Virus genome (UHGV): UHGV-1407733
From: a virus
Length of the DNA: 26,153 bases
Strand: one strand, 5' to 3'
The notes under the pieces were generated by a model. The model was given only the letters and a program-made list of their open reading frames with translations. It was not told where the DNA came from and searched no databases. Position numbers and translations under genes: made by a program. Below are positions 345-26,153 of this stretch, piece by piece. Every line of letters begins with the position of its first letter. Positions within the stretch are counted from its first letter, which is position 1.

Positions 345-983
345 TCAGGAGAATTTCATCATCATCTGCACTGCTACGCCGATTATCTTGCAGTTGCCGT
401 CGATTGGGATCAACGGATAGGCAGGGTTAAGCCCTTTCAGGTATTTGTTACCGCCATCAATGATTAGCTTCTTGAACGTGGCTTCATTAGCATCTGTCAG
501 CTTCGCAACTACCAGGCTTCCATTAACGCTTCCTTTCCAGTGTCGAACAGAACCAGCATACCCTCAGGAACGCTAAGGCCGGTAGGAGCTGTCATTGAGT
601 CGCCCTGAACCCTGAGCCAGAAGGCGTCACCGACAACGTGACAATCTGATTCATACCACTCATCCACTGCCTGAGGGTTGTACGGCTCTACGGCCTCACT
701 CCATGCACCTGCGCTAACCCAGCTAATCAACGGAAACTTTCCCCTGGCTTGTATTGTCCTGATAGTTGTCGCCAAAAAGCAGTTCTGCCGGAGCGACGCC
801 CAAAGCTTTAGCTATTACCTCTGCGTCATCAACACTAACGCTTCTGGTTCCTGATTCATAGTTGCCGATCCGAGATTGTGAAGCCCAGCCGCAAAGCTCC
901 GCCAGAGCCTTCTGTGAAAGCCCTTTATCTTCCCGTAATCGCTTGATACGCGCGGCGATAGTTTCTGTTCTGTTCATGCGCAT
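345..983 (-). CDS. cI: CI-type repressor (XRE HTH N-domain + LexA/S24 peptidase C-domain); frame interrupted twice
   Basis: N-terminal HTH (ORF 723..983) and C-terminal S24 domain with GDSM active-site motif (ORF 509..775). The true C-terminus (NGSLVVAKL...NGNCKIIGV) continues in a third frame to a stop at 345-347; this tail resembles P22 C2. Frame changes near 537 and 750. Confidence 0.85.
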
Positions 984-1087
984 TTTATATCACATTCCGT
1001 GGTTTAAGGCTTTACACGATTTGTGTTGACTATCAATCACAATATGTGTTTAATAAAGACTGAGTGAACTAGCTCTTAAGGAAACCT
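984..1087. promoter_or_regulatory. OR operator cluster with divergent pR / pRM
   Basis: Three ATCACA-N-TGTGTT type sites (about 987-1003, 1014-1028, 1035-1050). pR -35 TTGACT 1026-1031, 17-nt spacer, -10 TTTAAT 1049-1054, then RBS AAGGA before cro. The repressor ATG lies at the left edge, consistent with a near-leaderless pRM transcript. Confidence 0.7.
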
Positions 1088-1303
1088 ATGAACAACATTG
1101 CCAACGAACGGAAAAAGCTTGGCATCACTCAATCTGCGTTAGCAGGCGCGTGTGGCTGGAACCAGTCCCGCTTAGCTAACTACGAGTCAGGTATCCGGAC
1201 TCCAGATTTAGAGTCGTGCCGTCGCCTGGTAAAGGCGCTGAATAAATTGGGGAGCAAGACAACGCTAGATGGCTTGTTCCCGCCGGAACACAAAGCCGCT
1301 TAA
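1088..1303 (+). CDS. cro: Cro-like HTH repressor
   Basis: 71-aa ORF transcribed divergently from the repressor. Its HTH recognition region (GACGWNQSRLANYESG) closely parallels that of the repressor (ELCGWASQSRIGNYESG), as expected for proteins sharing operators. Confidence 0.8.
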   Translation: MNNIANERKKLGITQSALAGACGWNQSRLANYESGIRTPDLESCRRLVKALNKLGSKTTLDGLFPPEHKAA

Positions 1304-1312
1304 GACATTCCA

Positions 1313-1343
1313 GCTCTTACACATCCCAGCCCTGAAAAAGGGC
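1313..1343 (+). promoter_or_regulatory. nutR-type site (boxA + boxB)
   Basis: GCTCTTACA (boxA-like) followed by GCCCTGAAAAAGGGC at 1329-1343, the lambda nutR boxB sequence, between cro and cII. Confidence 0.8.
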
Positions 1344-1422
1344 ATCAAATTAAACCACACCTATGGTGTATGCATTTATTTGCATACATTCAATCAATTG
1401 TTATCTAAGGAAATACTTACAT

Positions 1423-1701
1423 ATGCAACTTACAAGTACTCGCAAGAAAGCGAATGCAATTACAAGCAACATCCTGAATCGAATTGCTGTACGTGGTCAG
1501 CGAAAGGTTGCCGACGCGTTAGGGATTAATGAATCGCAAATTTCGCGATGGAAAGACAGCTTCATCCCAAAAATGGGAATGCTTCTGGCTGTTCTTGAAT
1601 GGGGTGTTGAAGACGAGGAGTTGGCGGAACTGGCTAAGAAAGTAGCCAGAATGCTGACAAAAGAAAAAGCCCCGAAGAACGGCGAATTCTTCGAGGCCTG
1701 A
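1423..1701 (+). CDS. cII: CII transcriptional activator
   Basis: ATG at 1423 preceded by the lambda-like leader TAAGGAAATACTTACAT. Product contains the CII core (SQISRWK...IPK..MLLAVLEWGV). The track ORF 1363..1701 is an upstream extension of the same frame. Confidence 0.85.
   Translation: MQLTSTRKKANAITSNILNRIAVRGQRKVADALGINESQISRWKDSFIPKMGMLLAVLEWGVEDEELAELAKKVARMLTKEKAPKNGEFFEA
1659..1697 (-). terminator. OOP-like antisense terminator inside the cII 3' end
   Basis: Reverse-strand hairpin CGAAGAA-N7-TTCTTCG extended by flanking GC pairs and followed by TTTTTCTTTT. Orientation and position match the lambda oop terminator convergent on cII. Confidence 0.5.
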
Positions 1702-1735
1702 TGTAGAAAGACTGGATCAATCCACAGGAGTAATT

Positions 1736-1897
1736 ATGACAAAACGTCGTAAGAAATACCAGGAAAAAGAAGAGATTCGACACCCTGATTCACCTGAGGG
1801 ATTAGTGGTAGCCGCAGCAAATAACAGGGCGTTCGCAGAGCGCCTTGTTGGTGTTTACAGACTAGCCAAAGCAGGAGTGAAACATGGGCGTCGTTAA
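1736..1897 (+). CDS. Small basic hypothetical protein (53 aa)
   Basis: ATG 1736 preceded by AGGAG with good spacing; highly basic N-terminus (MTKRRKKYQEKEE). Below the ORF-track size cut-off; overlaps the O start by 14 nt. Confidence 0.3.
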   Translation: MTKRRKKYQEKEEIRHPDSPEGLVVAAANNRAFAERLVGVYRLAKAGVKHGRR

Positions 1898-2702
1898 GTT
1901 AGCTGATTACAGGCCTCAACTGGAGGTCGTGGAGCATCGCGTGGCAGATACCGAAGATGGTTTCATGCGCGTTGCTAACGAGATTACCGACAGTCTGCTG
2001 ATGGCTGATTTAACCGTCCGGCAGATGAAGGTGATGCTCGCTATCATGCGCAAGACATACGGATTCAATAAGCCGATGGATCGACTCACAAACACGCAGA
2101 TAGCAGCCATGACAGGTATTCATCACACTCATGTTTGCGCTGCCAAGCGCCAGCTTATTGAGCGTAAATTCCTCATTGCTGATGGCGTGAAATCGGAGTG
2201 AACAAGGTGGTTTCGCAGTGGATTAGCCAGGACAGCTTAACATTAGCTAAAACAGCTAATAAAACATTAGCCGAGTCGCTAATGGGTATAAGCCAAGTCA
2301 GCTAAACACAAAAGACAATATACAAAAGACAATAAATACAAATACCCCCTTACCCCCTAACGGGGGCGGCGATGGGCAGGTTAAACCTGAACGTCGCAAG
2401 GCAGAACGAATCGACTACGAATCCTTCCTGAACGCCTACAACACCGAAGTCGGTGACAGACTTCCACACGCTGTTGCGGTCAACGAAAAACGCAAACGCC
2501 GCCTGAAGAAAATCATCCCGCAACTGAAAACGCCAAACGTGGACGGTTTCAGAGCGTATGTCAGGGCGTTTGTGCATCAGGCCAAGCCGTTTTACTTCGG
2601 AGATAACGACACGGCTGGACGGCTGATTTTGATTACCTGCTGAGGGAAGATTCGTTAACGGGAGTTCGGGAAGGGAAGTTTGCAGACAGGGGGATTGCAT
2701 GA
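1884..2702 (+). CDS. O: O-type replication initiator; frame interrupted about three times
   Basis: N-terminal domain ([26 protein letters not shown]) matches the lambda O DNA-binding domain. Reading passes 0 to 2 near 2199, 2 to 0 near 2303, and 0 to 2 near 2615, ending [12 protein letters not shown]... with a stop at 2700-2702 overlapping the next ATG. Confidence 0.8.
2222..2306. repeat. Origin iterons (four inverted-repeat O-binding sites) inside O
   Basis: Four ATTAGC-N6/7-GCTAAT type inverted repeats starting at about 2222, 2242, 2266 and 2288 (period 20-24 bp), followed by an A/T-rich tract 2307-2345. This is the classic lambdoid ori architecture. Confidence 0.7.
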
Positions 2703-4075
2703 GACAGGATATCGAAGCGAGCGTTATCGGTGGCCTGCTGATTGGTGGATTAACACCAACTGCCAGTGACGTTCTGGCAACGCTTGAGCCGGAAGCGTTT
2801 TCAATTCCGCTCTACCGGAAAGCCTTCGAGGTTATCCGGAAGCAGGCGCGAAACAGAAACCTAATCGACGCGCTGATGGTTGCCGAGGCGTGCGGAGAGG
2901 AGCATTTCACGTCAATCCTGATGACCAGCAAAAACTGCCCGAGTGCCGCAAACCTGAAGGGATATGCCGGAATGGTCGCGGATAACTATCACCGCCGTCT
3001 GGTGCTGGAAATCATGGATGAAATGCGTGAACCAATTCAGAGCGGAACCATCGATACATCGAGTCAGGCGATGGACGAGCTTGTAAAGCGTCTTTCAGCC
3101 ATCAGAAAGCCCCGTGACGAGGTTAAACCTGTACGGTTAGGGGAAATCATCACTGACTACACTGACACGCTTGACAGGCGTCTGAGGAACGGAGAAGAGT
3201 CCGATACCCTGAAGACCGGAATCGAAGAACTTGACGCTATCACCGGAGGGATGAACGCGGAAGACCTGGTAATTATCGCCGCTCGTCCTGGTATGGGGAA
3301 AACCGAACTGGCGCTGAAGATTGCCGAAGGTGTTGCAAGCCGCGTTATTCCTGGTTCTGACGTCCGGAGCGGAGTATTGATTTTCTCAATGGAAATGAGC
3401 GCATTGCAGATTGCAGAGCGAAGCATTGCCAACGCCGGGAGGATGTCAGTTAGCGTGCTGCGAAATCCTGCATCGATGGATGACGAAGGCTGGGCGCGTG
3501 TTGCTAACGGCATGAGTCAGCTTGCAGATTTGGATGTGTGGGTAGTCGATGCCTCGCGGTTATCGGTCGAAGAAATTCGCTCAATCGCAGAACGGCACAA
3601 ACAGGAAAATCCAAACCTGTCACTCATCATGGTGGATTATCTTGGCCTGATTGAGAAGCCGAAAGCAGACCGCAACGACCTCGCAATTGCTCACATCTCC
3701 GGAAGCCTGAAGGCGATGGCGAAAGACCTGAAAACGCCTGTTATCTCCCTAAGTCAACTTTCGCGCGATGTTGAGAAGCGACCAAACAAACGCCCGACAA
3801 ACGCAGATTTGCGTGATTCAGGAAGCATTGAACAGGACGCAGACTCAATCATCATGCTCTATCGGGAAGCTGTATATGACGAGAACAGTAGCGCCGCGCC
3901 ATTTGCTGAAATCATCGTGACGAAAAACCGTTTTGGCTCGCTTGGTACGGTTTACCAGCGGTTCTGCAACGGACACTTTGTTGCATGTGACCAGGATGAA
4001 GCCAGACAGATTTGCACAGCATCAAATGCACCTGCTGCGCGTGGCAGACGATATGCACAAGGGGCTGACGTATGA
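2699..4075 (+). CDS. DnaB-family replicative helicase (P22 gene 12-type)
   Basis: 458-aa intact ORF with Walker [10 protein letters not shown], and MVDYLGLI and [35 protein letters not shown] motifs. ATGA overlap with the O stop. Confidence 0.9.
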
Positions 4076-4101
4076 CCATCTACATCACTGAGCTAATAAC
4101 A

Positions 4102-4130
4102 GGGGCTATTTACACAGTAGCCCTTTTTTA
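4102..4130 (+). terminator. tR2-like rho-independent terminator
   Basis: Hairpin GGGCTA-N9-TAGCCC followed by TTTTTT, 27 nt after the helicase stop and before the nin region. Confidence 0.6.
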
Positions 4131-4156
4131 TTGGATTAAGAACGAGGGGGATCCTG

Positions 4157-4308
4157 ATGGACACCGTTAACGGAATGTGTTCAGACGCACCGCGTGCCAA
4201 AAAATGTAAATGCGGAAAATCACCGACAATATTCGACATGGAGAACGGGTGCCAATCTACTGCGCTAACCACGCCGCTGTGGCGGCCGCGAATTATCGCA
4301 GTGCGGTA
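4157..4308 (+). CDS. Small Cys-rich hypothetical protein; extent uncertain
   Basis: ATG 4157 gives MDTVNGMCSDAPRAKKCKCGKSP... An alternative frame downstream (RVPIYCANHAAVAAANYRSAVTEWNNL) also looks protein-like, so a frame change is possible. Below track cut-off. Confidence 0.2.
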
Positions 4309-4348
4309 ACGGAGTGGAATAACCTGAAATCTGTTAGAGAGGGAAGTC

Positions 4349-4789
4349 ATGAAAAAACTAACCTTTGAAATTCGATCTCCGGCACATCAGCAAAACGCTA
4401 TTCACGCAGTACAGCAAATCCTTCCAGACCCAACCAAACCAATCGTAGTAACCATTCAGGAACGCAACCGTAGCTTAGACCAAAACCGAAAGCTTTGGGC
4501 TTGCCTTGGTGACGTCTCTCGTCAGGTTGAATGGCATGGTCGCTGGCTGGATGCGGAAAGCTGGAAGTGCGTTTTTACAGCAGCATTAAAGCAGCAGGAC
4601 GTTGTTCCTAACCTTGCCGGGAATGGCTTTGTGGTAATAGGCCAGTCAACCAGCAGGATGCGTGTAAGCGAATTTGCGGAGCTATTAGAGCTTATACAGG
4701 CATTCGGTACAGAGCGTGGCGTTAAGTGGTCAGACGAAGCGCGACTGGCTCTGGAGTGGAAAGCGCGATGGGGAGATCGGGCTGCATGA
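4349..4789 (+). CDS. ninB: NinB recombination protein
   Basis: 146-aa intact ORF at the nin-region entry point, the size and position of lambda NinB; stop overlaps the next ATG (ATGA). Confidence 0.8.
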   Translation: MKKLTFEIRSPAHQQNAIHAVQQILPDPTKPIVVTIQERNRSLDQNRKLWACLGDVSRQVEWHGRWLDAESWKCVFTAALKQQDVVPNLAGNGFVVIGQSTSRMRVSEFAELLELIQAFGTERGVKWSDEARLALEWKARWGDRAA

Positions 4790-5313
4790 CTATCAATCAA
4801 ATACGCCAGCACACGACAAGGACTGCTGGCAAACGCCGCTTTGGCTTTTTGATGCACTGGATATTGAGTTTGGATTCTGGCTGGATTCGGCAGCGAGCGA
4901 CAAAAATGCTCTGTGCGCTCACTGGGCTAACTGAGGCCGACGACGCGCTCAATTCTGAGTGGGTAAGCCACGGTGCAATCTGGAATAACCCACCGTACAG
5001 CAATATCAGGCCGTGGGTGGAAAAAGCCGCTGAGCAGTGCATACAACAGCGACAGACGGTAGTGATGCTTGTGCCAGAGGATATGTCTGTCGGATGGTTC
5101 AGCAAGGCTCTGGAGAGTGTTGACGAAGTTCGTATTATCACTGATGGACGGATTAATTTTATCGAACCATCGACAGGGCTGGAGAAGAAGGGAAACAGCA
5201 AAGGCTCCATGCTGCTGATTTGGCGACCGTTCATCAGTCCTCGACGGATGTTTACTACCGTATCCAAAGCGGCATTGATAGCGATCGGGCAGGGAGTCAG
5301 GAGGGCAGCATGA
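4786..5313 (+). CDS. dam: Phage Dam-family N6-adenine DNA methyltransferase; frame interrupted (1-2 changes)
   Basis: NPPY catalytic motif ([11 protein letters not shown]) in ORF 4726..5313. The N-terminal Dam signature ([25 protein letters not shown]) lies in a different frame (ORF 4716..4934), so the frame changes near 4930 and possibly near 4795. Confidence 0.8.
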
Positions 5314-5486
5314 GACGACAGCGACGAAGTATCACCGACATAATCTGTGAAAACTGCAAATACCTTCCAACGAAACGCTCCAGAAATAAACGCAAGCCAA
5401 TCCCAAAAGAATCTGACGTAAAAACCTTCAATTACACGGCTCACCTGTGGGATATCCGGTGGCTAAGACATCGTGCGAGGAAATGA
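5310..5486 (+). CDS. nin-region small basic protein (NinE-like)
   Basis: 58-aa [23 protein letters not shown]... with RBS AGGAGG; ATGA overlaps at both ends. Assignment to NinE is from recall only. Confidence 0.5.
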
Positions 5487-5890
5487 CAATGCTTTTAATT
5501 CAACCTGGATTTGGCCTTAGCATCAAAAAAGGGCACATGTTTGGTGAGAAAGAGTCACAACGAAAAATGGTGTCTATCCGGTTGCCATTTATCAGTATTT
5601 ATTGGCTAAACAGGGAGGCAACAAATTATTGGTATACATGCGCCAGAGCAGCATTCAACGATCCTGAGTGGTTTATAGAAAATCATCACGCGGTTCGTCA
5701 GGCAAAGAGAAAAGCGAATACGACATATATGAAGGCATATCAGGATGCTTGGAAAGATCATCGTGACCGATGCCAGCAAGACATGGAAAAGCTTGAATCA
5801 GAAAACATGGAATTAAGACGAAAGCTCGGTGAAGCAAAACGAGACATTGATGCTTACAAGCGACTTTTTAATGGTGAAAGCCATGCTTAG
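5483..5890 (+). CDS. Hypothetical nin-region protein with C-terminal coiled coil
   Basis: ATG 5483 overlapping the upstream stop; 135-aa product with a predicted coiled coil ([29 protein letters not shown]). No family recognised. Confidence 0.5.
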
Positions 5891-6058
5891 TCCATCCCAA
5901 TCCCTTCAATACCAGAAAGAAAGCGTCGAGCGAGCTTTAACGTGCGCTAACTGCGGTCAGAAGCTGCATGTGCTGGAAGTTCACGTGTGCTCCGATGCTG
6001 CGCAGAACTGATGAGCGATCCGAATAGCTCAATGTACGAGGAAGAAGACGATGAGTGA
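5883..6058 (+). CDS. ninF: NinF-like protein; frame interrupted once
   Basis: LTCANCGQKLHVLEVHVC matches lambda NinF; the conserved tail CAELMSDPNSSMYEEEDDE continues in another frame, implying a 1-nt change near 5990. Confidence 0.75.
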
Positions 6059-6263
6059 TTACCTGAAATGGTATCTCTGCCACCGCTGGCTAATTAAGTT
6101 TGCTGTAAAAGACTGGATGACAGCGGATGCCAACAAGCTTAAGCAAAGAAAAGACTATTACTACGCCAGAATGAAGGAAAACTACTGCTCAATTCGCACT
6201 CGCATATTTATTAAAAAAGACCTTCAGTCAATTCTTCAATTGCGAGGGAAGGTAAATGGCTAA
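6051..6263 (+). CDS. Hypothetical protein (70 aa)
   Basis: ORF with ATGA coupling to the upstream gene; no recognisable motif. Confidence 0.45.
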   Translation: MSDYLKWYLCHRWLIKFAVKDWMTADANKLKQRKDYYYARMKENYCSIRTRIFIKKDLQSILQLRGKVNG

Positions 6264-6545
6264 CCTACGCAAAGAAGCGCGCGGCAGAGAATGCCAGGTA
6301 CGTATTTACGGCATATGCAATGGCAATCCTGAAACTACAGTTCTGGCACATTACCGGATGGCTGGAATTTGCGGAACGGGAATGAAGCCTGACGACCTGA
6401 TCGGCGCATGGGCTTGTAGCGCGTGTCACGATGAAATCGACCGACGCACCCATAACCTCGACAACAAAGACGCCAGACTTACCACCTCGAAGGCGTGATC
6501 AGGACGCAGGCGATACTGCTGAAGGAGGGGAAGATTAAGTCATGA
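6256..6545 (+). CDS. DUF1364 / YbcO-like phage protein; frame interrupted once
   Basis: MANLRKEARGRECQVRI...CSACHDEIDRRTH matches the YbcO family. The conserved C-terminus HLEGVIRTQAILLKEGKIKS is in another frame, with a shift near 6480; stop overlaps the rusA ATG. Confidence 0.7.
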
Positions 6546-6904
6546 ACGAATATCAGTTTGTGCTTCCATACCCGCCGTCGGTGAACACCTACTGGCGAAG
6601 ACGGGGAAGCCAATACTACATCAGCGATAAAGGCCAGAAATACCGAAAAGACGTTCAGAAAATCATCCGCCAACTCAAGTTAGACATTTTCACCAAATCA
6701 CGACTCCGCATCAAAGTCATCGCAGACGTTCCAGACTCCCGCCGCCGCGACCTCGACAACATCCTGAAAGGTTTACTCGACTCCCTTATCCACGCCGGAT
6801 TTGCGGAAGACGACGAGCAATTCGATGACATTCGCGTAATTCGTGGTGTGAAAGTACCAGGCGGACGGCTTGGAATAAAAATCACCGAACTGGAGAACGT
6901 ATGA
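6542..6904 (+). CDS. rusA: RusA Holliday-junction resolvase
   Basis: 120-aa intact ORF with the RusA signature (YPPSVNTYWRRRG...DLDNILKGLLDSL). Confidence 0.9.
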   Translation: MNEYQFVLPYPPSVNTYWRRRGSQYYISDKGQKYRKDVQKIIRQLKLDIFTKSRLRIKVIADVPDSRRRDLDNILKGLLDSLIHAGFAEDDEQFDDIRVIRGVKVPGGRLGIKITELENV

Positions 6905-7057
6905 ACGCCACAATTCAAACGATACCAGAGCTTCTTATCCAGAACACGAGGCAATCAGACCGAAGTGGCAAGGATGCTTTCCTGCGCAAGAGGAACAGTG
7001 CTCAAGTACAACCGAGACAGCAAAGGCGAGCGTCACGTAATAGTTAACGGCGTCTGA
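6901..7057 (+). CDS. ninH: NinH-like protein; frame interrupted once
   Basis: MNATIQTIPELL then, after a shift near 6945, GNQTEVARMLSCARGTVLKY (HTH), as in lambda NinH. Confidence 0.65.
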
Positions 7058-7085
7058 TGGTCAAACAGGGCAAGAGGGGAAGACG

Positions 7086-7602
7086 ATGAGCATAAGAGAA
7101 CTAAACCTCACCAAGAACAGCACGATTGGCTGAATGGCTGGCTTGAACTGTGGGGCGCATGGTTTATTCAGGCCGCCTGGAAAAGCGCATGAGCAGCGTA
7201 ATAGCTAAGTTCATGGAGAGCGTAGAGCCGGGAAGAGTTATGACAAGGCCAATGTGTAATGATGATGATGGAATGTTGATTTCTCAGGTCGTCGATTCCG
7301 TCATGTACATTGACAAGAAAGCCTTTAGCATCCTCCTCAGCTACTACGCTCATGGTTCATCTAAGCGAGCAATTGCATCCTACTATCACGCGACTGCAAA
7401 GCCACGCAAGATGTGTGGACGTGGTGGCGAGGGATGGAGAAAACCTTCACTGGCAACCTGTAGAAACGAAATTGACGACATCCTGAAAGCGTCATTATTT
7501 GTTTTATACCAGCCGATGCAAAATGCTTTCAAAATGCGTAAACGTGTTGAGAAAGTTAAGCATGTTGCTGTTAAAAGCCTTGACATGCAATTAGCCATTT
7601 AG
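7086..7602 (+). CDS. Q: Late antiterminator Q, 82/P22 gene 23 family; frame interrupted twice
   Basis: WLELWGAW, RPMCNDDDGM and LLSYYAHG motifs typical of the Phage_antitermQ family. N-terminal 40 codons occupy two other frames, with shifts near 7115 and 7190. Confidence 0.75.
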
Positions 7603-7609
7603 CCATAAT
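7580..7609 (+). promoter_or_regulatory. pR'-like late promoter
   Basis: TTGACA (7580-7585), 18-nt spacer, CATAAT (7604-7609), overlapping the Q stop, where lambdoid late promoters sit. Confidence 0.55.
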
Positions 7610-7620
7610 TAGAAGGTAAG

Positions 7621-7660
7621 CTGCCGTTAGTGACTCTTAAGTTGCAACGGTGGCTTTTTT
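7621..7660 (+). terminator. tR'-like terminator of a short leader (6S-like) transcript
   Basis: GC-rich hairpin (CCGTT...AACGG with flanking pairs) followed by TTTTTT at 7655-7660, about 15-45 nt downstream of the pR' -10. Confidence 0.5.
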
Positions 7661-8100
7661 ATTTGCACAACAGGTAAGAGCATTGAACCCGCAGACCTCG
7701 CGGAATTGGTGAAAGGTGCCGCGCAGTGCTCTTATCGTTGTGGTGAATGCACAGGCTGATGTGTAAGGGCAAGAATCTTTCGCTGGATTCGGTGTGGCCA
7801 CGTAGCCCGCTGTAGGCAGTTGCAGCAAACCGGAGATCAGCACCGGTCGCCACAATCCAAACTGAGCCGTAGCCACTGGCTATCATGAATTCATCGGTGA
7901 TAGTTACGCTGCGGACTTCTACACATGACCTTCGTGAAAGCGGGTAGCAAGAGGTTGCGCTAACAACCTCCTGCCGTTTTGCTCGTGCATATCGGTCACG
8001 AACAAATCTGATTACTAAACACAGTAGCCTGGATTTGTTCTATCAGTAATCGACCTTATTCCTAATTAAATAGAGCAAATCCCCTTATTGGGGGTAAGAC

Positions 8101-9348: not shown

Positions 9349-9521
9349 TAGCGATAATTTTACTCATCATCCTTCACATCTGGCTCTGTAGGCAGGGTGG
9401 TGAACACTTCTGGAGTGAATCCGGATTAAATATCTCATTGCTGATGCTTGATATTGAGCATCTGGCGCGCGGTAAGGGGCTGCGTTGAGATAAGAGCCAG
9501 TCATTACAAATACCAGGATTT

Positions 9522-16963: not shown

Positions 16964-16973
16964 GGAGATCGAA

Positions 16974-17604: not shown

Positions 17605-17613
17605 GGTGAATAA

Positions 17614-19030
17614 ATGCCGATTCAGCAACTTCCGCTTATGAAAGGTGTCGGCAAAGACTTTCGAAACGCCGACTATATCGACTATCTGCCAGTGAATATG
17701 CTGGCTACGCCCAAAGAAATACTCAACAGCAGCGGATATCTTCGCTCATTCCCGGGCATTGCCAAACGCTCTGATGTAAACGGTGTATCGCGCGGAGTTG
17801 AGTACAACATGGCGCAGAATGCTGTTTATCGCGTGTGTGGCGGCAAGCTGTACAAAGGAGAAAGTGAAGTCGGTGATGTTGCCGGAAGTGGTCGTGTATC
17901 AATGGCGCATGGTCGAACATCTCAGGCTGTAGGCGTTAATGGTCAACTGGTTGAGTATCGCTATGATGGCACGGTTAAAACCGTCTCAAACTGGCCTGCA
18001 GACAGCGGATTTACGCAGTATGAGTTAGGTTCAGTCCGCGACATTACACGCTTACGTGGGCGTTATGCGTGGTCAAAAGACGGCACGGATTCATGGTTTA
18101 TTACTGACCTTGAAGACGAATCGCACCCTGACCGATACAGCGCACAATATCGCGCAGAATCGCAGCCTGACGGCATTATCGGCATCGGAACATGGCGAGA
18201 CTTCATTGTCTGCTTTGGTTCATCAACGATTGAATATTTCTCCATGACTGGTGCAACCACTGTTGGTGCCGCTTTGTATGTCGCACAGCCATCGCTGATG
18301 GTGCAGAAAGGTATTGCCGGGACTTACTGCAAAACGCCGTTTGCTGATTCGTATGCGTTCATCAGCAATCCGGCAACAGGCGCGCCTTCTGTATACATCA
18401 TCGGCTCCGGTCAGGTATCACCAATAGCCAGCGCGAGCATTGAGAAAATCCTCCGCTCCTACACTGCTGATGAACTGGCTGATGGCGTGATGGAATCGTT
18501 GCGGTTTGATGCTCATGAGTTGCTGATTATTCACCTGCCGCGCCACGTCCTCGTGTACGACGCATCTTCAAGCGCCAATGTCCGCAATGGTGTGTACTGA
18601 AAACAGGCCTGTATGACGATGTGTACCGCGCTATCGACTTCATTTACGAAGGCAACCAAATTACGTGCGGCGATAAGTTGAATCGATGACAGGGAAATTG
18701 CAGTTCGATATCAGCAGCCAGTACGACAGGCAACAGGAACACCTGCTGTTTACTCCGTTGTTCAAAGCGGATAACGCCAGAGTTTTCGACCTTGAGGTTG
18801 AGTCGTCAACTGGCGTTGCGCAGTATGCTGACCGCCTTTTTCTCTCTGCAACCACTGACGGCATCAATTACGGGCGTGAGCAGATGATTGAGCAGAATGA
18901 ACCGTTCGTTTACGACAAACGTGTTTTGTGGAAGCGAGTAGGGCGCATCAGGAAAAATGTCGGCTTCAAATTGCGCGTTATCACGAAGTCACCTGTCACT
19001 CTGTCTGGTTGCCAGATAAGGATTGAGTAA
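17614..19030 (+). CDS. Head-completion protein (P22 gp10-like); frame interrupted twice
   Basis: About 472 codons in three frames (17614..18600, about 18597..18683, 18686..19030), matching the size of P22 gp10. Confidence 0.7.
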
Positions 19031-19730
19031 TGGCTGATTCGAATCTCAATGAGCCGGTAACAATTCAGGCTACACGACTCGATACATCAATCCTTCCACG
19101 CAATATATTCAGCCAGTCTTACCTGCTGTATGTCATTAATCAGGGGGCTGATGTCGGCGCAATTGCCGGGAAGGCAAATCAGGCTGGTCAGGGCGCTTAC
19201 GATGCCCAGGTAAAAAACGATGAACAGGATGTCGAACTGGCTGATCACGACGCAAGAATCACCGCAAACACAAAAGCGATAAATCTACTTGAGGTCAGGT
19301 TAACAACTGCCGAAGGGAAGATAGTCGTACTGCGTAGCATGTTGATTACTTGCTGGATGAGGTTATCGATATTCAGGCGCATCTGGTCACTGTTGACCAA
19401 AGACTGGATGACGTAGAAAACGATGTCTCTGGCATTAAGAGTGATTACGTATCGAAAACCGTAACCGAATTGCAGTCTCTTGCGTCACCGCTGGATGTAA
19501 AAACATCATATTCAGTTGATGGAATTCAGGTCGTTGGAGCAAGGCAGAGCGGATGGACTGCAGCCACAGGTACGCCACTTCTTGGTTCATTCAACGCTAA
19601 CCAGTCATACACGGTCGGCACTACGTACACACAATCCGAAGTCGCAGCTCTCGCTACAGGTTTGGAGCAGGCGCGGCAGCGTATTCTGGCGCTTGAAACA
19701 GCACTTAGATTACATGGGCTGATTGACTGA
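19030..19730 (+). CDS. Tail needle / plug protein (P22 gp26-like); frame interrupted once
   Basis: About 233 codons with heptad coiled-coil and a C-terminus ending [20 protein letters not shown]. Two ORFs (19030..19416, 19350..19730) overlap around a shift near 19350. Confidence 0.75.
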
Positions 19731-20185
19731 TGATTACATTCAAACCAACGCGAAACATCGACCTGATAGAAGCCGTAGGAAATCACCCTGACATTATCGC
19801 CGGGAGCAACAACGGTGATGGATACGACTACAAACCTGAATGCCGTTACTTTGAGGTTAACGTGCACGGTCAGTTCGGCGGCATTGTTTACTATCAGGAG
19901 ATTCAGCCGCTGACATTCGATTGCCACGCCATGTACCTGCCAGAGGTTCGTGGATTCAGCAAGGAAATCGGGCTGGCGTTCTGGCGATACATTCTGACTA
20001 ACACCACCGTTCAGTGCGTCACATCGTTCGCTGCACGCAAATTCCGCCACGGGCAGATGTACTGCGCAATTATTGGCCTTAAGCGTGTAGGAACCATCAA
20101 GAAATACTTCAAAGGCGTGGATGACGTGACTTTTTACAGCGCCACACGCGAAGAACTAATCGACTTCCTGAATCACGGGAGATAG
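19730..20185 (+). CDS. P22 gene 14-position protein (ejection-protein assembly factor candidate)
   Basis: 151-aa intact ORF between the needle gene and the first ejection protein gene; assignment by synteny only. Confidence 0.45.
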   Translation: MITFKPTRNIDLIEAVGNHPDIIAGSNNGDGYDYKPECRYFEVNVHGQFGGIVYYQEIQPLTFDCHAMYLPEVRGFSKEIGLAFWRYILTNTTVQCVTSFAARKFRHGQMYCAIIGLKRVGTIKKYFKGVDDVTFYSATREELIDFLNHGR

Positions 20186-20187
20186 CC

Positions 20188-20876
20188 ATGTTATATGCAT
20201 TTAAGCTGGGCAGAAAACTGCGCGGCGAGGAACCTTATTGCCCTGAAAAAGGCGGGAAAGGTGGCTCTGATAAAAGTGCAAGTATGCCGCAGAAGCTCAG
20301 AAGTATGCCGCAGACCTGCAAAATCAGCAGTTCAATACCATCATGAACAACCTGAAGCCGTTTACTCCTCTGGCTGGGAAGCATGTCGGCAGCCTTGAGA
20401 ACTTATCGTCTCTGGAAGGGCAAGGTCAGGCACTTAACCAGTATTACAACTCTCAGCAGTACAAAGATCTTGCTGGTCAGGCTCGCTATCAGAGTCTGGC
20501 GGCAGCGGAAGCAACAGGTGGATTGGGTTCCACCGCAACCAGTAATCAGTTAGCAACAATCGCACCAACGCTTGGTCAGCAATGGCTGTCTGGACAAATG
20601 AACAATTACAACAACCTGGCAAATATCGGTCTTGGCGCTCTTCAGGGGCAGGCAAACGCCGGGCAGACATATGCCAACAACATGAGCCAGATTTCACAGC
20701 AAAGCGCTGCTCTTGCAGCGGCAAACGCCAACCGACCGTCAGCATTGCGGCAGGGTGTTAGTGGTGCTGCATCCGGTGCGCTTTTGGGTGGTGGCATAGC
20801 CAGTGCTCTCGAGCTATCAACTCCGTGGGGTGCTGGTATCGGTGCTGGTCTTGGTCTGCTTGGCTCGTTGTTTTAA
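20188..20876 (+). CDS. Ejection (injection) protein, P22 gp7-like; frame interrupted once
   Basis: About 229 codons; N-terminus MLYAFKLGRKLRGEEP..., then after a shift near 20280 KYAAEAQKYAADLQNQQFNTIMNNLKPF... with a Gly/Ala/Gln-rich C-terminus. Confidence 0.65.
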
Positions 20877-20886
20877 GGGGTAATCA

Positions 20887-22228
20887 ATGGCTACGTGGCA
20901 ACAGGGTATTAATTCTGGTGGTTTTCTGGCTGGCATCGGTACGCAAAATGAGAATGCGCCAAAGGCAAGCGACATTAACGCAACGCTTGGTCTGATCCGC
21001 GAAAACAATGAACTGGCTCGCTCAGGTGCAAATAACGTTGGTCTGACCGCGTTACGTGGTCTGGCTGGAGTTGCTGATATTTATAAGCAGCAGCAACAGC
21101 AGGAACGTAAAGCGGCATTCCAGAAAGGTTATGCGGATGCTTATGCGTCCGGCGACAGGGAGCAGATGCGTAATCTTATTACAGCATTCCCCGAAGAGTT
21201 TGAGGAAGTCCGTAAAGGCATGGGGTATGTCGATGACGCCCAGCGGGATGATTTTGGCAATCTGGCGCTTAAGGCTCAGGTCGCTTCGTCGCTTGGTCCG
21301 GGTGCATTTGGCAGGTTCATGATGGATAACGAAAAGGAGATGCGTCGTTTAGGTATCCCTCCAGAAACTATTGCGGAAAATGCAGGTTAACGACCCGCAG
21401 CTTCCAGCACTTCACAGGTAATCTGGCACTATTTTCTCTCGGTCATGAGAAGTATTTCGATATCAAAGATCGAATGGAGGGGCGTCGACTTGAGCAAGGG
21501 CGATTGGATGAAAGCATCCGTCAGGCTGACATGGAGAATGCGAGAGGATGGGCAAATATCCAAAACGCTCAACTAGACAGGCTCAGCGGGCACAAATGCA
21601 CTCAGATGAGATGGGATTGAAGCTAATGGAGCTGGGGCAAAAAGGTAAGCCGTCAGCAGACTTAATTAAGGGATTAAATTCTGATATTACCAATTTTGGC
21701 AAAAATTATAACTCTGTCAGAGCGGCGGCAAACTCTCTGCAAGCCCTTAGCAAGGTAAATACTGGCGCTGCCCAACTTGGGATTATCTTTAATTACATGA
21801 AGTCTCTCGACCCTCAGTCAGTTGTTCGCGAAGGTGAACAGGTTCAGGTCATGCGCTCTGATGGCATATGGGGGCAGATAAAAGGATATGTAGACCAGCT
21901 TAATGCAGGGAATGGCTTGTCACAGGAAGCGAGGGATAACATTGTTAACGCAGCCAAAATTAACGCCAACGCTATGGGGCAGCAGTTTAACCAGCAGGTA
22001 GACGAATATCTGGATACGTATGGAGATACTATTCCTCAAGGGCTGAAAAAAAGCTTAGGGAGAAGGAAGGCCAAGCTATTTGACGATGTCCCAGCGCAGC
22101 CTACACCACAAGGTGGTAATGGGCAGACAAAAGCTGCGCCAAGTGGGATATCAGAAGGCGCGACGGCAACGAACCCTAAAACTGGTCAGAAACTCATTTA
22201 TAGGAACGGACAATGGCAACCGATGTAG
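20887..22228 (+). CDS. Ejection protein, P22 gp20-like; frame interrupted twice
   Basis: ORF 20887..21390, a middle segment in another frame, and ORF 21548..22228 form one protein of about 447 codons. Shifts near 21385 and 21590. Confidence 0.65.
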
Positions 22229-24333
22229 GTTTACCCGAAGGATTTGTTCTCGATAATCAGCCTGATAACTCACAGCTTCCTGATGGTTTTGTGCTTGATT
22301 CCCAACCAGAGCAGCAGCAATCACCTTTGGTTTCACCAGAGGAAAACTCCAGACAGGAAAATGTTGTTAATAATGCTAACGGCTTCGACCGTTTTATGTA
22401 TGGCGTTCTCAGTGGATTGATGGATGTTGGTAAAGGTGTTGGTCTATTTCAGGATATGACACCAGAAGAGCAAGCCGCAATTCAGTCTCTACAGCAGAAG
22501 TTAGCGGCAAAACCATCAACCGCACAAGATGTTGGTGAGTTCGTTGGACAAGCAGCACCATTTGTTAGTGGTGGTGGGATTATTTCTCAGGTTCCGAAAG
22601 GGGCGGCAAGGCTGGCTGCCGCCGCAGGGCTTGGTGCTGGAGAAGGGGCTATTGTAGCCAATGGAACAAATAGCGATGTTGCTTCTGGAGCTGCTATTGG
22701 CGCTGTGGCTGGCCCTGTAGCAGAGATTGTTGGTCCAGCGCTTGGGAAGATTGCAGGAAAAATTAAAAATAGTGCCGGAGATATTTATCGCTCATCCGTA
22801 GGGATGGGTAGTAAATCATCTAAAGCAACGTTAAAGAAAGCTGCTGGCGCAATGGACAATAAATTTATCGGCGGGCAACGAGCTATTCAAGATTTCGCCG
22901 ATGAAGTTAATCCTGATTTTAACGCGATAAATGCTATTCGTGAGCTAGAACTGGAAAATTATGCCACTCCAGGCATGATCTCTAATAATCCTGCTGTCAG
23001 GGCTCTTGATAATGCAGTGGCAAGTCTCCCTGGCACAGAGATTAGTGAGGCGCATAAGCGTTTTATTACTGAATTAGGAAGAAAAGCTGATGAAATGATA
23101 ACTTCATTTGGGGGAAGCCTTGATAAGCAACTGGTTTCTGACAGGCTTGCAGATAATTTTGATAAAACCATTTCATCATTACAAAATCAGTCAGATAACA
23201 TCTACAACAAAATTGCCGAAAAGGTTCCTGTAAGAGACCGGATTGAGCAACTAATACATTGAATTTTTTAGAGGATTTTGCTGATGATATAGGTGGAATT
23301 GATGAATTATCTCCAATAATGAAGCGGACATTGAACCGACTTGATCCAAACACCTTGCCAACGTATGGGCGTTTAGATCTCGCTAGAAAGCAGGTTGGAC
23401 AAGCTATTGGCAAAGGCTCTGGTCCATTCAAGGATGAAGAAACAGGTGTTCTTAAAAAGTTATATGCAGCCATAACAGATGACCAACAGGCTGTCGCAGA
23501 AAAATATGGCGCAGGGGAATTATGGACGCTTGGTAAGGAGTTGGTAAAAAAACGAAAATCCATTGAAGATGATGCCGTAACCGTTTTGGGTAGAAAACTT
23601 CAGCAATCAGCAATTCCAAAAGTTGAAAGTGCCGTTGTTAATATGGCAAAAGGAAACGGTGGTGACTTTAGGCAATTAATGAAGTCAATTCCAAAGGATA
23701 TGCGGCAGGAAGTTGCGCTCACCTCAATGAATAAAGCATTTACCAGCTATGCTAAATCACCAGGTCAGCAATTAGGGTTGATGGATTTGTAAAATGGTAT
23801 AACGGAATGTCACGCAATGGGGCCAATATGAAGGCTCTCCGTGATGCTATTGGCACAGATGCATCAAAGCGCCTTGATACGATTTATCAAGCAGCCAAGG
23901 CTATGAATAGACTCAATGCTGGTAAGCAGTATGCTAGCAGCCTTGTGGATCAGCAAGTTAATAACTTTCTGAAGGAAAAGGGTAGTCTAGCAAAAATTTA
24001 TGGAATAGCCTCAAAAGCTGCTGCGGCGGAAGGTGTTACAAGCTTATCTGGTCTTCCTGGTGTAGGTGCAACAGGGTGATAACGTCCGCATTGATGTCAG
24101 GGAAAACAAGCAGGATAAAGGCTGCCGATGCTCTACTGTCTTCTCCTGAGTTTAAATCAATGCTATTTCGCCTGCAAAACGCACCAGTAGACAGAGCAGA
24201 AGTGAGACGCGCAATAGAAAGGAAACTGATGCAATCTGGGGCATTTAAGAGATGGGAGAAAACCCTATCAACAGATGAAGCAAAAACCATTGCCCGCACG
24301 GGGATTATTACATGGCTCGCTAGTGACAGTTAG
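22213..24333 (+). CDS. Ejection protein, P22 gp16-like; frame interrupted about three times
   Basis: Four consecutive ORFs (22213..23262, 23259..23792, 23807..24079, 24076..24333) in rotating frames. N-terminus carries the tandem peptide repeat PEGFVLDNQPD / PDGFVLDSQPE. Last gene before the leftward accessory cassette, as gene 16 is in P22. Confidence 0.65.
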
Positions 24334-24556
24334 TCAACTTTGGTTATTTTGCCTTCTTTTTCTTGATGAACTTTGCATCCATCATCTTTTGATAGCCAAA
24401 CTAAAAACTTTAAAACCTTAAACACAAGTACGGATACTGTAATGAAAGCACCAATTGCAATTATTGCTATTGAAATTATTTGCATTGGTGCTTTTAATGC
24501 TGGGAAAACAGTGTAATGAGCGAAAAAACAGCAATTATGATGAGCCATTGCTTCAT
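24330..24556 (-). CDS. Small membrane protein; start and frame uncertain
   Basis: Track ORF 24330..24548 has one predicted TM helix (IISIAIIAIGAFITVSVLVF). A stronger start (ATG 24554-24556, RBS GGAGGA 4 nt upstream) opens a hydrophobic peptide MKQWLIIIAVFSLITL in another frame across an A6/T6 run (24523-24528). Confidence 0.4.
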
Positions 24557-24584
24557 GTTGTCCTCCCAGGTTTTATTGGTAAGA

Positions 24585-25145
24585 TCACTGCTTTATTTTG
24601 GTATCATGGGTTTCACTAGCGGCTTCCTTCGCAGTCGGCTCAGAAACCTTGAAGTAAGATTGAATCTGCGGAAGCGTTATGATTACCGCAAGCATAGCGA
24701 GAACCGCACCAACGAGCCATTGGGTCGCGGTCATGGATGTTTTAATGCCATCAATTTGGCCTTTGAGCCCTGCAACTTCGCCATTGCTAGCGAATATCTG
24801 TCCCTTAATTTCATTAAGCGACTGATTCATAGCTGTAAATTGCTTAGATTGGAATTCTCTGAAAGCTGAAATTTCAGCGCGCATGTTAGCAGATATTAAC
24901 TCAATTTCTGCTTTGTTTTGACCAAGCTTCGCGTCAATCTCTTCTCTTGATGGGCTGCCCATAGCATGCTCCTCAGTGTATTGTTTTCCAAGATAAGCGA
25001 TATTATTGTTTTTGGTTATATCATTCTTGGTAACTGGAGGCGAAGCATTGGACTTTTCTCCGAAGCCACCTGTCGACCCCATACGACCAAGTGTTCTCTT
25101 TTTCTCCGCTGCATGATCAGCATTTACGGCAGGAAAAGTAATCAT
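24585..25145 (-). CDS. Tail-anchored coiled-coil membrane protein (superinfection-exclusion candidate)
   Basis: Central coiled coil (AEIELISANMRAEISAFREFQSKQFTAMNQSLNEIKGQI) followed by a single C-terminal TM helix (WLVGAVLAMLAVIITL). An internal ATG near 24962 with RBS GAGGAG is an alternative start giving about 126 aa. Confidence 0.55.
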   Translation of the reverse strand: MITFPAVNADHAAEKKRTLGRMGSTGGFGEKSNASPPVTKNDITKNNNIAYLGKQYTEEHAMGSPSREEIDAKLGQNKAEIELISANMRAEISAFREFQSKQFTAMNQSLNEIKGQIFASNGEVAGLKGQIDGIKTSMTATQWLVGAVLAMLAVIITLPQIQSYFKVSEPTAKEAASETHDTKIKQ

Positions 25146-25152
25146 GGCTCTG

Positions 25153-25431
25153 TCAGCTTAATTTTTTTGATTCTTCGTGTTGAGAAACTATATACTTAGC
25201 CAGTTCAAGAAGTTGATTTTCACTCATGCGAATATTGGCAATTTGGTATCTAACTGGCTGAATCTCCTCATTATTAACCCAGTCTGAAACATGCTTAAAA
25301 AATGCTATTGAACCAAATCTTGCTCCGACATCCCCAAAAGACGAGTAAGCAAATCCATCAGCATACTCATTTACAGCATCACTTGAGTCCTTGAAGATGG
25401 TTTCTTTGAAGTTCACTTTGGTATCTGTCAT
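25153..25431 (-). CDS. Hypothetical protein (92 aa)
   Basis: ORF starting 3 nt after the mnt-like stop with AAGGA RBS (translationally coupled); no TM helix, no recognisable motif. Confidence 0.55.
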   Translation of the reverse strand: MTDTKVNFKETIFKDSSDAVNEYADGFAYSSFGDVGARFGSIAFFKHVSDWVNNEEIQPVRYQIANIRMSENQLLELAKYIVSQHEESKKLS

Positions 25432-25433
25432 AT

Positions 25434-25683
25434 TTATTTATCCTTACCATACATGGTCTTTAGCGTCTCAACATCGCGTTCAAGATCTATCAATCGTGAT
25501 GCTATAGTTGCAAGGTCTAGTGCTTGAATGTGTTTATTTTTTTCGGTCCACGCTTCAAGTGCCGGCGACCATCTCAGCATTTAATGAACGAGAATTAGCC
25601 TCAGCCAGTTCAATAAGACGTTCCTTTATCTCTACAGGAAGCCTCAGATTCACTTGAGGGTTTTTGTACTTACGATCAGACAT
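25434..25683 (-). CDS. mnt: Mnt-like ribbon-helix-helix repressor; frame interrupted once
   Basis: N-terminus NPQVNLRLPVEIKERLIELAEANSRSLNAEMV fits the Arc/Mnt RHH pattern. The C-terminal coiled-coil part (LEAWTEKNKHIQALD...TLKTMYGKDK) is in the adjacent frame, with a shift near 25560. Confidence 0.65.
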
Positions 25684-25788
25684 CGGCGCATCCTGAATAA
25701 TTTTTTACCACAGGATATGTAGGTATCTATTGACTATCAATGCGTACCTAAATACTATGTATGCGTACCACATACAACGGAGGATGCA
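25684..25788. promoter_or_regulatory. Divergent Pmnt / Pant promoter-operator region
   Basis: Rightward -35 TTGACT (25730-25735), 17-nt spacer, -10 TACTAT (25753-25758), then RBS GGAGGA before arc. Inverted repeat TAGGTA...TACCTA and direct repeat GCGTACC flank the promoter elements. Confidence 0.6.
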
Positions 25789-25929
25789 ATGAAGGTAAAA
25801 ACACTGCGTATGCCAGAGAAGCTAGAAAAAATTCTTGAAGAAAAAGCAAAGGAAGAGTGTCGCTCATTCAGCGCAGAAGTAATTAAACGGGTGCTGGACA
25901 GCCTGAGGAGAGAGGGGATAACGGTGTGA
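25789..25929 (+). CDS. arc: Arc-like ribbon-helix-helix repressor
   Basis: 46-aa ORF MKVKTLRMPEKLEKILEEKAKEECRSFSAEVIKRVLDSL matching the Arc/MetJ RHH pattern; below track cut-off. Confidence 0.7.
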   Translation: MKVKTLRMPEKLEKILEEKAKEECRSFSAEVIKRVLDSLRREGITV

Positions 25930-25944
25930 TTCGCTTGGATGCGG

Positions 25945-26027
25945 CAAAGAAATCAAAACAGTGAAGCCCCAACTGCGGGAACAGTCAGGGCTTCGGTATC
26001 GTAAAACCACGCATAGGAATTAACGAC
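25945..26027 (-). ncRNA. Sar-like antisense RNA region (arc-ant intercistronic)
   Basis: Reverse-strand hairpin GAAGCCC-N18-GGGCTTC followed by a U-rich tract (TGTTTTGATTTCTTT), antisense to the ant ribosome-binding region. In P22 the sar antisense RNA occupies this position. Confidence 0.35.
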
Positions 26028-26153
26028 ATGAAAAGTATAGCAACAGCAGTATCTACTATCAATGTACCATTCCACGGCGCAGAGCTTTATGTTGTCAATC
26101 ACAACGGCGAACCGTATACCCCAATGAAACCTATCGTTGAGGAATGGGGCTAG
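26028..26153 (+). CDS. ant: Antirepressor Ant, N-terminal fragment (runs off the window; frame interrupted near 26140)
   Basis: MKSIATAVSTINVPFHGAELYVVNHNGEPYTPMKPIVE resembles the Ant N-terminal domain. The in-frame TAG at 26151-26153 looks like a frame-change artefact, since the adjacent frame reads ...VEGMGL. Confidence 0.55.
   Translation: MKSIATAVSTINVPFHGAELYVVNHNGEPYTPMKPIVEEWG

Follow-up and report, generated by a model that had tools for sequence, protein, structure and literature searches.

Many genes in the 26,153-nucleotide stretch of viral DNA analysed here (UHGV virus genome UHGV-1407733; hereafter the window) are interrupted by changes of reading frame, which raises the question of whether the sequence records a phage in decay, an unusual process of mutation or expression, or a fault in how the sequence was obtained. 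We consider it almost certain that these interruptions are of technical origin, namely errors in homopolymer length, mostly undercalls of one base, in a metagenome contig for which very few reads were available, and not mutations of the phage.

The contig and its gene content

The whole window (1 to 26153, plus strand) is a single public contig, ena:ERZ504554:NODE_318_length_26153_cov_2.441943, also held as a JGI/IMG copy, whose SPAdes-style header gives a k-mer coverage of 2.44. By its gene content, the window represents part of a P22-like (Lederbergvirus-type) E. coli phage genome, with the order cI-cro-cII-O-P-nin-Q-lysis-TerS-TerL-portal-scaffold-coat-gp4-gp10-gp26-gp14-gp7-gp20-gp16-immI. 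The P22-type virion module (TerS, TerL, portal, scaffold, coat, gp4, gp10, gp26, gp14, gp7, gp20 and gp16) stands in canonical order and its genes match full-length once the indels are corrected; the immI (arc/ant) region is present as well, and the Pfam families found on the contig include P22_portal, P22_CoatProtein, P22_Tail-4, Phage_stabilise, P22_gp7, Inj_translocase, Arc and P22_AR_N. The P22-like E. coli phages CUS-3, HK620, Sf101 and vB_EcoP_Kapi1 (genus Lederbergvirus) share this gene order and 90-96% nucleotide identity across the nin, lysis and virion modules (95% for CUS-3). The window differs from them by the usual mosaic differences and in being partial, without tailspike, integrase and early-left genes; the tailspike, the integrase and the attachment site lie outside it because the contig starts upstream of cI and stops inside the antirepressor gene.

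Number and placement of the indels

Private indels were defined as events of the window in base-level alignments to up to 16 independent references. The window holds 50 of them (36 deletions and 14 insertions; 48 of one base and two of two bases), and every one is missing from all references covering its site (1-16 references per site). Apparent indels at 163, 7654, 9500, 9684 and 16955 were dropped as natural polymorphisms common to some references.

The initial annotation, which covered 345-26153, had counted about 31 frame changes in about 20 genes, or one per 0.8 kb. These interruptions are real, but their number was underestimated, as this part of the window carries 40 private indels (34 deletions, 6 insertions), one per 0.65 kb, with 39 inside 22 genes and one intergenic (14731). 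The even spread described there was borne out, the positions being uniformly scattered (KS P=0.97, spacing CV 0.94), and so was the presence of conserved protein in both flanking frames: when intact homologues were compared with the window by tblastn, genes were split over 2-4 frames with 95-100% amino acid identity on either side of the breaks. The genes and their events are as follows, including the replicative helicase gene, which is among those spared by chance:

348-983, minus strand, cI repressor (LexA family): three deletions, 528 (GG to G), 740 (TTTT to TTT) and 759 (CCC to CC)
1884-2699, plus strand, replication protein O: three deletions, 2191 (A4 to A3), 2277 (GG to G) and 2613 (GGG to GG)
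2699-4075, plus strand, replicative helicase P: intact, 458 aa, 99.1% identity in a single frame
4157-4368, plus strand, 70-aa hypothetical gene: deletion 4254 (AAA to AA)
4786-5313, plus strand, Dam-type N6-adenine methyltransferase: deletion 4795 (AAA to AA), insertion 4924 (GG to GGG)
5883-6058, plus strand, NinF: deletion 5995 (TT to T)
6256-6545, plus strand, DUF1364/YbcO gene: deletion 6479 (TTT to TT)
6901-7086, plus strand, NinH: insertion 6943 (A to AA), deletion 7053 (CC to C)
7086-7602, plus strand, antiterminator Q: deletions 7113 (AAA to AA) and 7161 (GGG to GG)
9693-10213, plus strand, KilA-N domain gene: deletion 9883 (CCC to CC); 100% amino acid identity once corrected
10622-11063, plus strand, terminase small subunit (TerS): insertion at 10780-10786 (A6 to A7)
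11060-12473, plus strand, terminase large subunit: deletions 12028 (GGG to GG) and 12066 (single G), missing from reference L011
12475-14671, plus strand, portal protein: deletions 13250 (AAA to AA) and 13501 (TTT to TT)
14761-15657, plus strand, scaffolding protein: insertion 15049 (C to CC), deletion 15455 (CCCC to CCC)
15678-16933, plus strand, coat protein: deletions 16002 (GGG to GG), 16020 (GGG to G, two bases) and 16681 (CC to C)
17614-19030, plus strand, gp10 (packaged-DNA stabilisation): deletions 18579 (GG to G) and 18677 (single C)
19030-19730, plus strand, gp26 tail needle: deletion 19338 (single G)
20188-20876, plus strand, gp7 ejection protein: deletion 20280 (AAA to AA)
20887-22228, plus strand, gp20 ejection protein: insertion 21377 (AAA to AAAA), deletions 21399 (GGG to G, two bases) and 21580 (GGG to GG)
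22213-24333, plus strand, gp16 ejection protein: deletions 23246 (GG to G), 23776 (GGGG to GGG) and 24075 (GGGG to GGG)
24333-24556, minus strand, 75-aa hypothetical gene: deletion 24515 (AAA to AA)
25437-25683, minus strand, Arc-family repressor: insertion 25564 (G to GG)
26028-26153, plus strand, beginning of the antirepressor gene, truncated where the contig stops: deletion 26139 (read as AA to A or as GGG to GG according to the reference chosen)

The exact helicase P protein is found on 24 contigs. The corrected cI matches the prophage repressor of strain 0H26 (L015) over 213 of 213 residues with 0 nucleotide substitutions, and the corrected coat protein matches over 419 of 419 residues, with 0 nucleotide substitutions against reference L001.

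Intergenic DNA is affected as well, and bases 1-344 add 10 private indels:

1-120, unstranded, contig terminus: 8 private events, insertions at 25, 29, 47, 50, 62, 69 and 86 and a deletion at 117
231 and 304, intergenic, near the terminus: AAA to AAAA and A6 to A5, two references concurring against the window
14730-14732, unstranded, intergenic between portal and scaffold: deletion GGG to GG, not in L011 and L012, both of which otherwise show 0 mismatches

The last of these means that the events are not limited to coding sequence. All eight events in the first 120 nucleotides alter the length of a pre-existing run, two independent references concur against the window there, and so many events in that interval are far beyond the background rate (Poisson P=4e-11).

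Sequence context and selection

The initial annotation had regarded the TerS insertion as the only change in a homopolymer, which proved wrong. Within 345-26153, 31 of the 34 deletions fall in runs of at least 2 bases (45% expected, P=1.5e-8) and 23 of 34 in runs of at least 3 (14% expected, P=2.6e-12); window-wide, 25 of 36 deletions lie in runs of at least 3 (14% expected, P=1e-13). Insertions extend a pre-existing run in every case (14/14 window-wide, 6/6 within 345-26153). TerS is, rather, the sole long run hit in 345-26153, and single bases were lost at 12066, 18677 and 19338 outside any slippery run. By run length, one event fell in the 92 runs of at least 5 bases versus 22 in the 1,023 runs of 3-4 bases.

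Given that some of the sites are A-runs, such as the A7 of TerS, one might suppose that frameshifting, ribosomal or transcriptional, is programmed there and that the broken genes are nevertheless expressed. We regard this as the least probable of all the explanations weighed here and practically dismiss it, as each gene occupies a single uninterrupted frame in every relative, including a substitution-identical prophage (L029, below), no site is conserved, and such recoding would have to operate at 39 in-gene sites in 22 genes, of which the three single-base losses named above have no slippery run.

With the 50 events corrected, all genes for which a reference exists regain full length, with 94-100% amino acid identity, and the corrected reading frames hold no internal stop in 7,067 codons. 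The codon differences between the window and its relatives are 331 synonymous versus 86 non-synonymous, that is 79% synonymous (23% expected; P=5e-133), and the window is colinear throughout with intact relatives, with no large deletion, IS insertion or rearrangement. The earlier observation that premature stops, large deletions and IS elements are lacking thus holds.

These results bear on the first alternative offered by the initial annotation, a freshly decaying, pseudogenised cryptic prophage whose indels are real mutations gained after loss of function. Many genes are disrupted, essential ones included, and natural indels favour homopolymers as well, so that a superficial likeness exists to the decayed cryptic prophages DLP12, Rac and Qin of E. 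coli K-12, in which many phage genes are likewise non-functional as written. Cryptic prophages, however, typically carry large deletions, IS insertions, nonsense mutations and relaxed selection, all of which distinguish DLP12, Rac and Qin from the window. At 5-10 substitutions per indel, about 7-13 nonsense codons would be expected where none was found, and the clustering of events at the contig end is a property of an assembly and not of a genome.

Comparison with an intact isolate prophage

The initial annotation had proposed as a check an alignment to the closest intact relative. Such an intact relative, L029, is E. coli isolate contig BFPV01000075.1 (GCA_005386765.1), and the same region occurs in GCA_005385165.1 (L034). 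Over 16.6 kb the window and L029 differ by 0 substitutions and 22 indel events (0 and 14 over 7984-19337, 0 and 8 over 1498-6756); were indels to account for even one third of natural differences, a series of 22 indels and no substitution would have P=3e-11. The L029/L034 prophage has the same order from O to gp26 as the window, and all of its genes are intact. It differs from the window in its immunity region (a 237-aa cI) and its Q allele (207 aa), and the phage of the window is therefore a mosaic relative. None of the window indels is shared with L029, L034, L025, L011 or L012. So many indels unaccompanied by a single substitution make recent decay of a prophage, in our view, very improbable.

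Comparison with other assemblies

The same phage is present in a sister assembly of the same batch, ERZ504677 NODE_76 (cov 5.87, or 5.9x), which overlaps the window by 15.8 kb with 2 scattered mismatches and one 110-bp patch. At all 24 window events within the overlap the sister has the intact state, which again speaks against a decayed prophage, and it carries 13 private indels of its own, none common to the window; its gp7, for instance, is broken elsewhere, at 20320. The direction of the errors is opposite in the two assemblies, with deletions to insertions at 35:7 in the window versus 4:9 in the sister (Fisher P=7e-4), and the density in the sister is about half that of the window (0.82 versus 1.6 per kb), a difference that reaches only P=0.07.

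Contigs from Logan's assembly of run DRR042503 agree with the window across 5.5 kb without a mismatch and are discordant with it only at two A6/A7 runs, with one wrong run in each assembly: at the TerS run 10780-10786 Logan has A6 and an intact 146-aa TerS where the window has A7, and at the gp16 run 23540-23546 the window has the correct A7 and Logan A6. The two assemblers concur at 6 of 8 comparable homopolymer sites, six private indels being common to both. From the 0-mismatch identity and these six indels we infer that the window and the Logan assembly probably share the reads of DRR042503. Concordance at 6 of 8 sites implies that the errors there had read support sufficient for both assemblers. 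That two assemblers reproduce most indels of the run could also be taken in favour of a cryptic prophage. It would be surprising for independent random errors to survive in both, save where the reads were few, were duplicates or had been copied from a miscopied template.

Real strand-slippage hypermutation, for example in a mismatch-repair-deficient host, would likewise give a divergence made up of indels alone and biased towards homopolymers, with a different set in each of two samples, as seen here. Mismatch-repair mutators, however, yield abundant transitions besides indels, and there is no transition in the 16.6 kb shared with L029; slippage climbs steeply with run length, yet long runs were hit only once; two assemblies of a single run disagree at A6/A7 runs; and the direction bias is reversed between the sister assemblies. 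Moreover, a phage with about 22 broken genes would be unable to propagate, and a separate burst of mutation would therefore be needed for each sample. We thus give hypermutation only a very slight chance, and hold it equally doubtful that the indels were physically in the sampled DNA as a P22-like population undergoing rapid, sample-specific, indel-only slippage through an error-prone polymerase or a repair-deficient host.

The other alternative of the initial annotation, deliberate perturbation by synthetic benchmark indels planted in the window, might draw on the even, Poisson-like spacing of the events. It fares worse still: of ten truncated ORF products tested, nine occur verbatim in public collections, where the frameshifted fragments trace to this contig, the events have a strong context and direction bias unlike uniform random edits, and six identical indels are present in the independent Logan assembly.

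Origin of the errors and significance

The errors are private to the assembly and dependent on context; they vary from one assembler to the other and from one sister assembly to the other, and they accumulate at the contig end. The indel error in the assembly that the initial annotation preferred is strongly supported by an intact, substitution-identical L029, a sister that shares no indels, discordant assemblers and 2.4x coverage. The source reads probably derive from a sequencing chemistry that tends to miscall run lengths, of the Ion Torrent or 454 type, or else from a library in which slippage occurred during amplification, and a k-mer coverage of about 2.4x would have left the assembler with too few reads to outvote the miscalls. 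Errors of flow reads (454, Ion Torrent) and of unpolished long reads are likewise one-base changes of run length with a deletion bias, and homopolymer errors at low coverage likewise show Poisson scatter in coding and non-coding DNA, assembly-specific sites, higher numbers at low coverage and contig ends, and assembler discordance at A6/A7 runs. Unlike typical flow-read errors, those of the window lie mostly in 2-4-base runs, without a clear rise at 5 bases and beyond, and most were kept by two assemblers. The error rate per run shows no clear rise past 3-4 bases, where classic flow chemistry predicts one, although the numbers are small.

The truncated products of this contig are mostly labelled 'hypothetical protein' in public protein collections and are clustered there with real partial proteins, and the same-batch sister assembly (ERZ504677) is damaged in a similar way. 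Contigs such as ERZ504554 NODE_318 would mislead scans for pseudogenes, recoding, novel small ORFs and 'decaying prophages', and would be caught by simple filters on either of two signs, a very low coverage of the contig or a divergence from a close relative that consists of indels only. For the phage itself the frame breaks are without biological meaning: beneath them lies an ordinary P22-like E. coli temperate phage or prophage whose genes are intact.

Results

In megablast searches of collections of phage and E. coli genomes, the window proved to be a P22-like (Lederbergvirus-type) temperate phage that shares long blocks of 94-97% identity with CUS-3, HK620 and many E. coli prophages. The gene order, taken from annotated relatives, is cI, cro, cII, O, P, the nin genes, Q and holin/lysozyme/Rz in the early part, followed by TerS, TerL, portal, scaffold, coat, gp4, gp10, gp26, gp14, gp7, gp20 and gp16 in the virion part, with an immI region carrying arc and ant after gp16. 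When intact reference proteins were searched against the window by tblastn, gene after gene was split over 2-4 frames with 95-100% identity on each side of the break, and all ORFs of six relatives placed on the window gave 32 frame-switch clusters, some with two events. By aligning at base level with flank-identity filters, inspecting ambiguous sites and using closer references at both contig ends, we curated a list of 50 indel events that are private to this contig, namely 36 deletions and 14 insertions, each of one base except for two two-base deletions. None of the 50 is present in any reference covering its site (1-16 references per site). Apparent indels at 163, 7654, 9500, 9684 and 16955, where the window agrees with some references, were removed as natural polymorphisms. 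Between 345 and 26153 there are 40 events (34 deletions and 6 insertions), 39 of them inside 22 genes and one intergenic at 14731. The frame breaks reported in the initial annotation are thus real, although its figure of about 31 changes in about 20 genes was a slight undercount, and the even spacing that it described is borne out (KS P=0.97).

A look-up of the Rz protein retrieved two near-identical prophages of E. coli isolates, L029 (GCA_005386765.1 BFPV01000075.1) and L034 (the same region in GCA_005385165.1). L029 differs from the window by 0 substitutions and 14 indel events over 7984-19337 (11.35 kb), and by 0 substitutions and 8 indel events over 1498-6756 (5.26 kb). Alignment with an intact relative, a check of the kind that had been proposed, yields 22 indel events and not one substitution, an outcome with P=3e-11 even if indels made up one third of natural differences. 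The 121 "private substitutions" counted against only nine references are an overestimate, as most of them disappear against L029. In addition, L011 and L012, contigs from other samples that are otherwise almost identical to the window, lack the deletions at 12028, 12066, 13250 and 14731.

The same phage was also found in a second metagenome assembly, here called the sister (L025, ERZ504677 NODE_76_length_63472_cov_5.869), to which a look-up of the gp7 fragment led. Across the 15.8-kb overlap the sister differs from the window by two scattered substitutions and one 110-bp patch of 20 mismatches, and at each of the 24 catalogued window events in that interval it is intact. Its own private indels number 13, none in common with the window; TerS, TerL, scaffold, coat, gp10, gp26 and Arc are unbroken, and portal, gp7, gp20 and gp16 are broken at positions other than those of the window. 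Its bias is towards insertions (9:4), the reverse of the window (Fisher P=7e-4), and its event density is about half that of the window at 2.4 times the coverage, a difference that alone reaches only P=0.07.

A seemingly common gp7 frameshift (a 177-aa fragment on 7 contigs) was rejected, as the sister is broken at 20320 and not at 20279, upstream of the same internal ATG, and the intact AAA at the window's site rules it out in five other loci, in all of which gp7 lies within ~220 bases of the start of the retrieved stretch. A common portal frameshift (388-aa fragment) was likewise rejected: contigs L010 and L012 do not reach upstream of the fragment, and L011 has an inverted junction there. 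In L011 (ERZ12190675 NODE_11267_length_3323_cov_2.63), TerL and the portal N-terminus are inverted onto the portal C-terminus at window ~13272/13503; this is another low-coverage assembly, and the junction is probably a mis-join, either chimeric or palindromic.

With the 50 events undone, each gene that has a reference becomes a single full-length match at 94-100% amino acid identity, including cI (213/213), coat (419/419) and TerS (146/146). The 7,067 corrected codons contain no internal stop, and the window is also free of large deletions and IS elements, as had been remarked from the start. Differences from the nearest relatives number 349/64/40 at codon positions 3/1/2, and 331 codon differences are synonymous against 86 non-synonymous, where 23% synonymous would be expected at random (P=5e-133). 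Eight genes, 3.8 kb in total, show no nucleotide substitution against a relative, yet hold seven indel events. Judged from the corrected sequence, the window's genes are under purifying selection right up to sampling. Fresh decay of a prophage fails as an explanation given this signature, the missing substitutions and stops, and the fact that the indels are not inherited; programmed frameshifting fails as well, since all homologues read through.

The events depend on their sequence context. The view that only the TerS change sits in a homopolymer could not be upheld: 25 of the 36 deletions take a base from a run of at least three identical bases, which hold 14% of bases (P=1e-13), runs of at least two hold 33 of the 36 (P=4e-9), and every one of the 14 insertions extends an existing run. 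Deletions outnumber insertions 36:14 overall and 35:7 beyond the first 120 bases (P=1.5e-5). In an earlier catalogue of 37 events, the events per run came to 0.04% among single bases, 0.2% among doublets and ~2% among runs of 3-4; runs of at least five bases are hardly hit. The first 120 bases of the contig hold eight events (P=4e-11 against the background rate), and two independent references concur in this stretch, both against the window. There is no reason for a genome to mutate where an assembler stops, and the tail of a read at single-read depth would account for these errors.

Exact look-up found nine truncated ORF products verbatim in public collections; those with frameshifts lead back to a contig exactly as long as the window (26,153 bases), ena:ERZ504554:NODE_318_length_26153_cov_2.441943, which is also in JGI/IMG. 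Deliberate perturbation of the sequence fails accordingly, as the truncated proteins were already public under that contig and the events are context-biased. We take the header to be in SPAdes format with k-mer coverage as its final field, a reading under which very few reads went into the contig. Two Logan contigs of run DRR042503 (L008 and L014) match the window with 0 mismatches over 5.5 kb and have six private indels in common with it, and so evidently come from the same reads. They disagree with the window on the length of two A6/A7 runs. An extra A in the window at 10780 breaks TerS, which is an intact 146-aa protein in Logan; at 23540-23546 (23546) the window is correct and L014 (DRR042503_13043, ~2150) has A6 for A7, an additional break in gp16. 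The read set is thus inconsistent on run length, and the damage extends to the public Logan contigs of the run. Biological slippage hypermutation, which would place the run-length changes in the phage itself, fails on this disagreement between assemblers, and also because transitions are absent, long runs are spared and the direction bias is flipped in the sister.

Run DRR042503 may belong to the Japanese gut metagenome study PRJDB3601. Full-text searches, including for PRJDB3601, gave no literature link from DRR042503 or ERZ504554 to a sequencing platform. The paper on the Japanese gut metagenome, deposited under PRJDB3601, describes 454, Ion PGM/Proton and MiSeq sequencing (PMC4833420).

Discussion

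The indels were shown to be assembly-specific, dependent on run context, unstable between assemblers and not inherited by the same phage elsewhere, and indel error in the assembly, the reading preferred in the initial annotation, is correct. We suggest that short homopolymers were miscounted by the sequencing chemistry or in the library, and that 2.4x coverage would have been too thin for miscalls to be outvoted. To judge from the SPAdes-style naming and the length of the Logan k-mer contigs (2-3 kb), these were short reads with ~1% indel error (Ion Torrent or 454 type, for example) and probably not noisy long reads. At 6735 and 11713 the sister has private T insertions right after A6/A7 runs (AAAAAA[T]GG and AAAAAAA[T]GC), which extend no homopolymer and resemble carry-over of signal from the long run before them; they would fit chemistry of the Ion Torrent/454 type. 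Most of the errors persist through both assemblers. A low number of reads, duplicated reads or amplification slippage at the template level would explain both this survival and the sparing of runs of at least five; any of these would still be an artefact.

The phage is a clean mosaic, in which 1-1700, 7090-7930 and 19337-26153 are set against 1498-6756 and 7984-19337. Its cI and cro are 100% identical to those of the strain 0H26 prophage; the replication-nin block (1498-6756) and the lysis-to-gp10 block (7984-19337) are substitution-identical to L029; and for Q it has the 172-aa allele type found in SBF22 and CUS-3, where L029 has a 207-aa antiterminator instead. The Rz/Rz1 region (8997-9320) has extra in-frame segments of 21 nt and 9 nt and several small compensating indels relative to L001-L003, and is a natural allele rather than an error, as at least 24 other contigs encode exactly this 155-aa Rz. 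The patch in the sister lies at window 18729-18841, in the C-terminal part of gp10, where the window agrees with L029, and represents either a short mosaic (recombined) segment or two P22-like strains collapsed into one contig. In L034, 1-5988 (BFMT01000397.1) holds Mu-like early genes (rve transposase, AAA_22, Gam, GemA, Mor) directly upstream of ninE in the same P22-like prophage, which may reflect either the insertion of a Mu-type element into this prophage or a hybrid.

Taken together, the window holds an ordinary mosaic P22-like phage and no biological feature besides, and the sole value of the finding is to warn of low-coverage contigs and of the truncated proteins that they feed into public catalogues.
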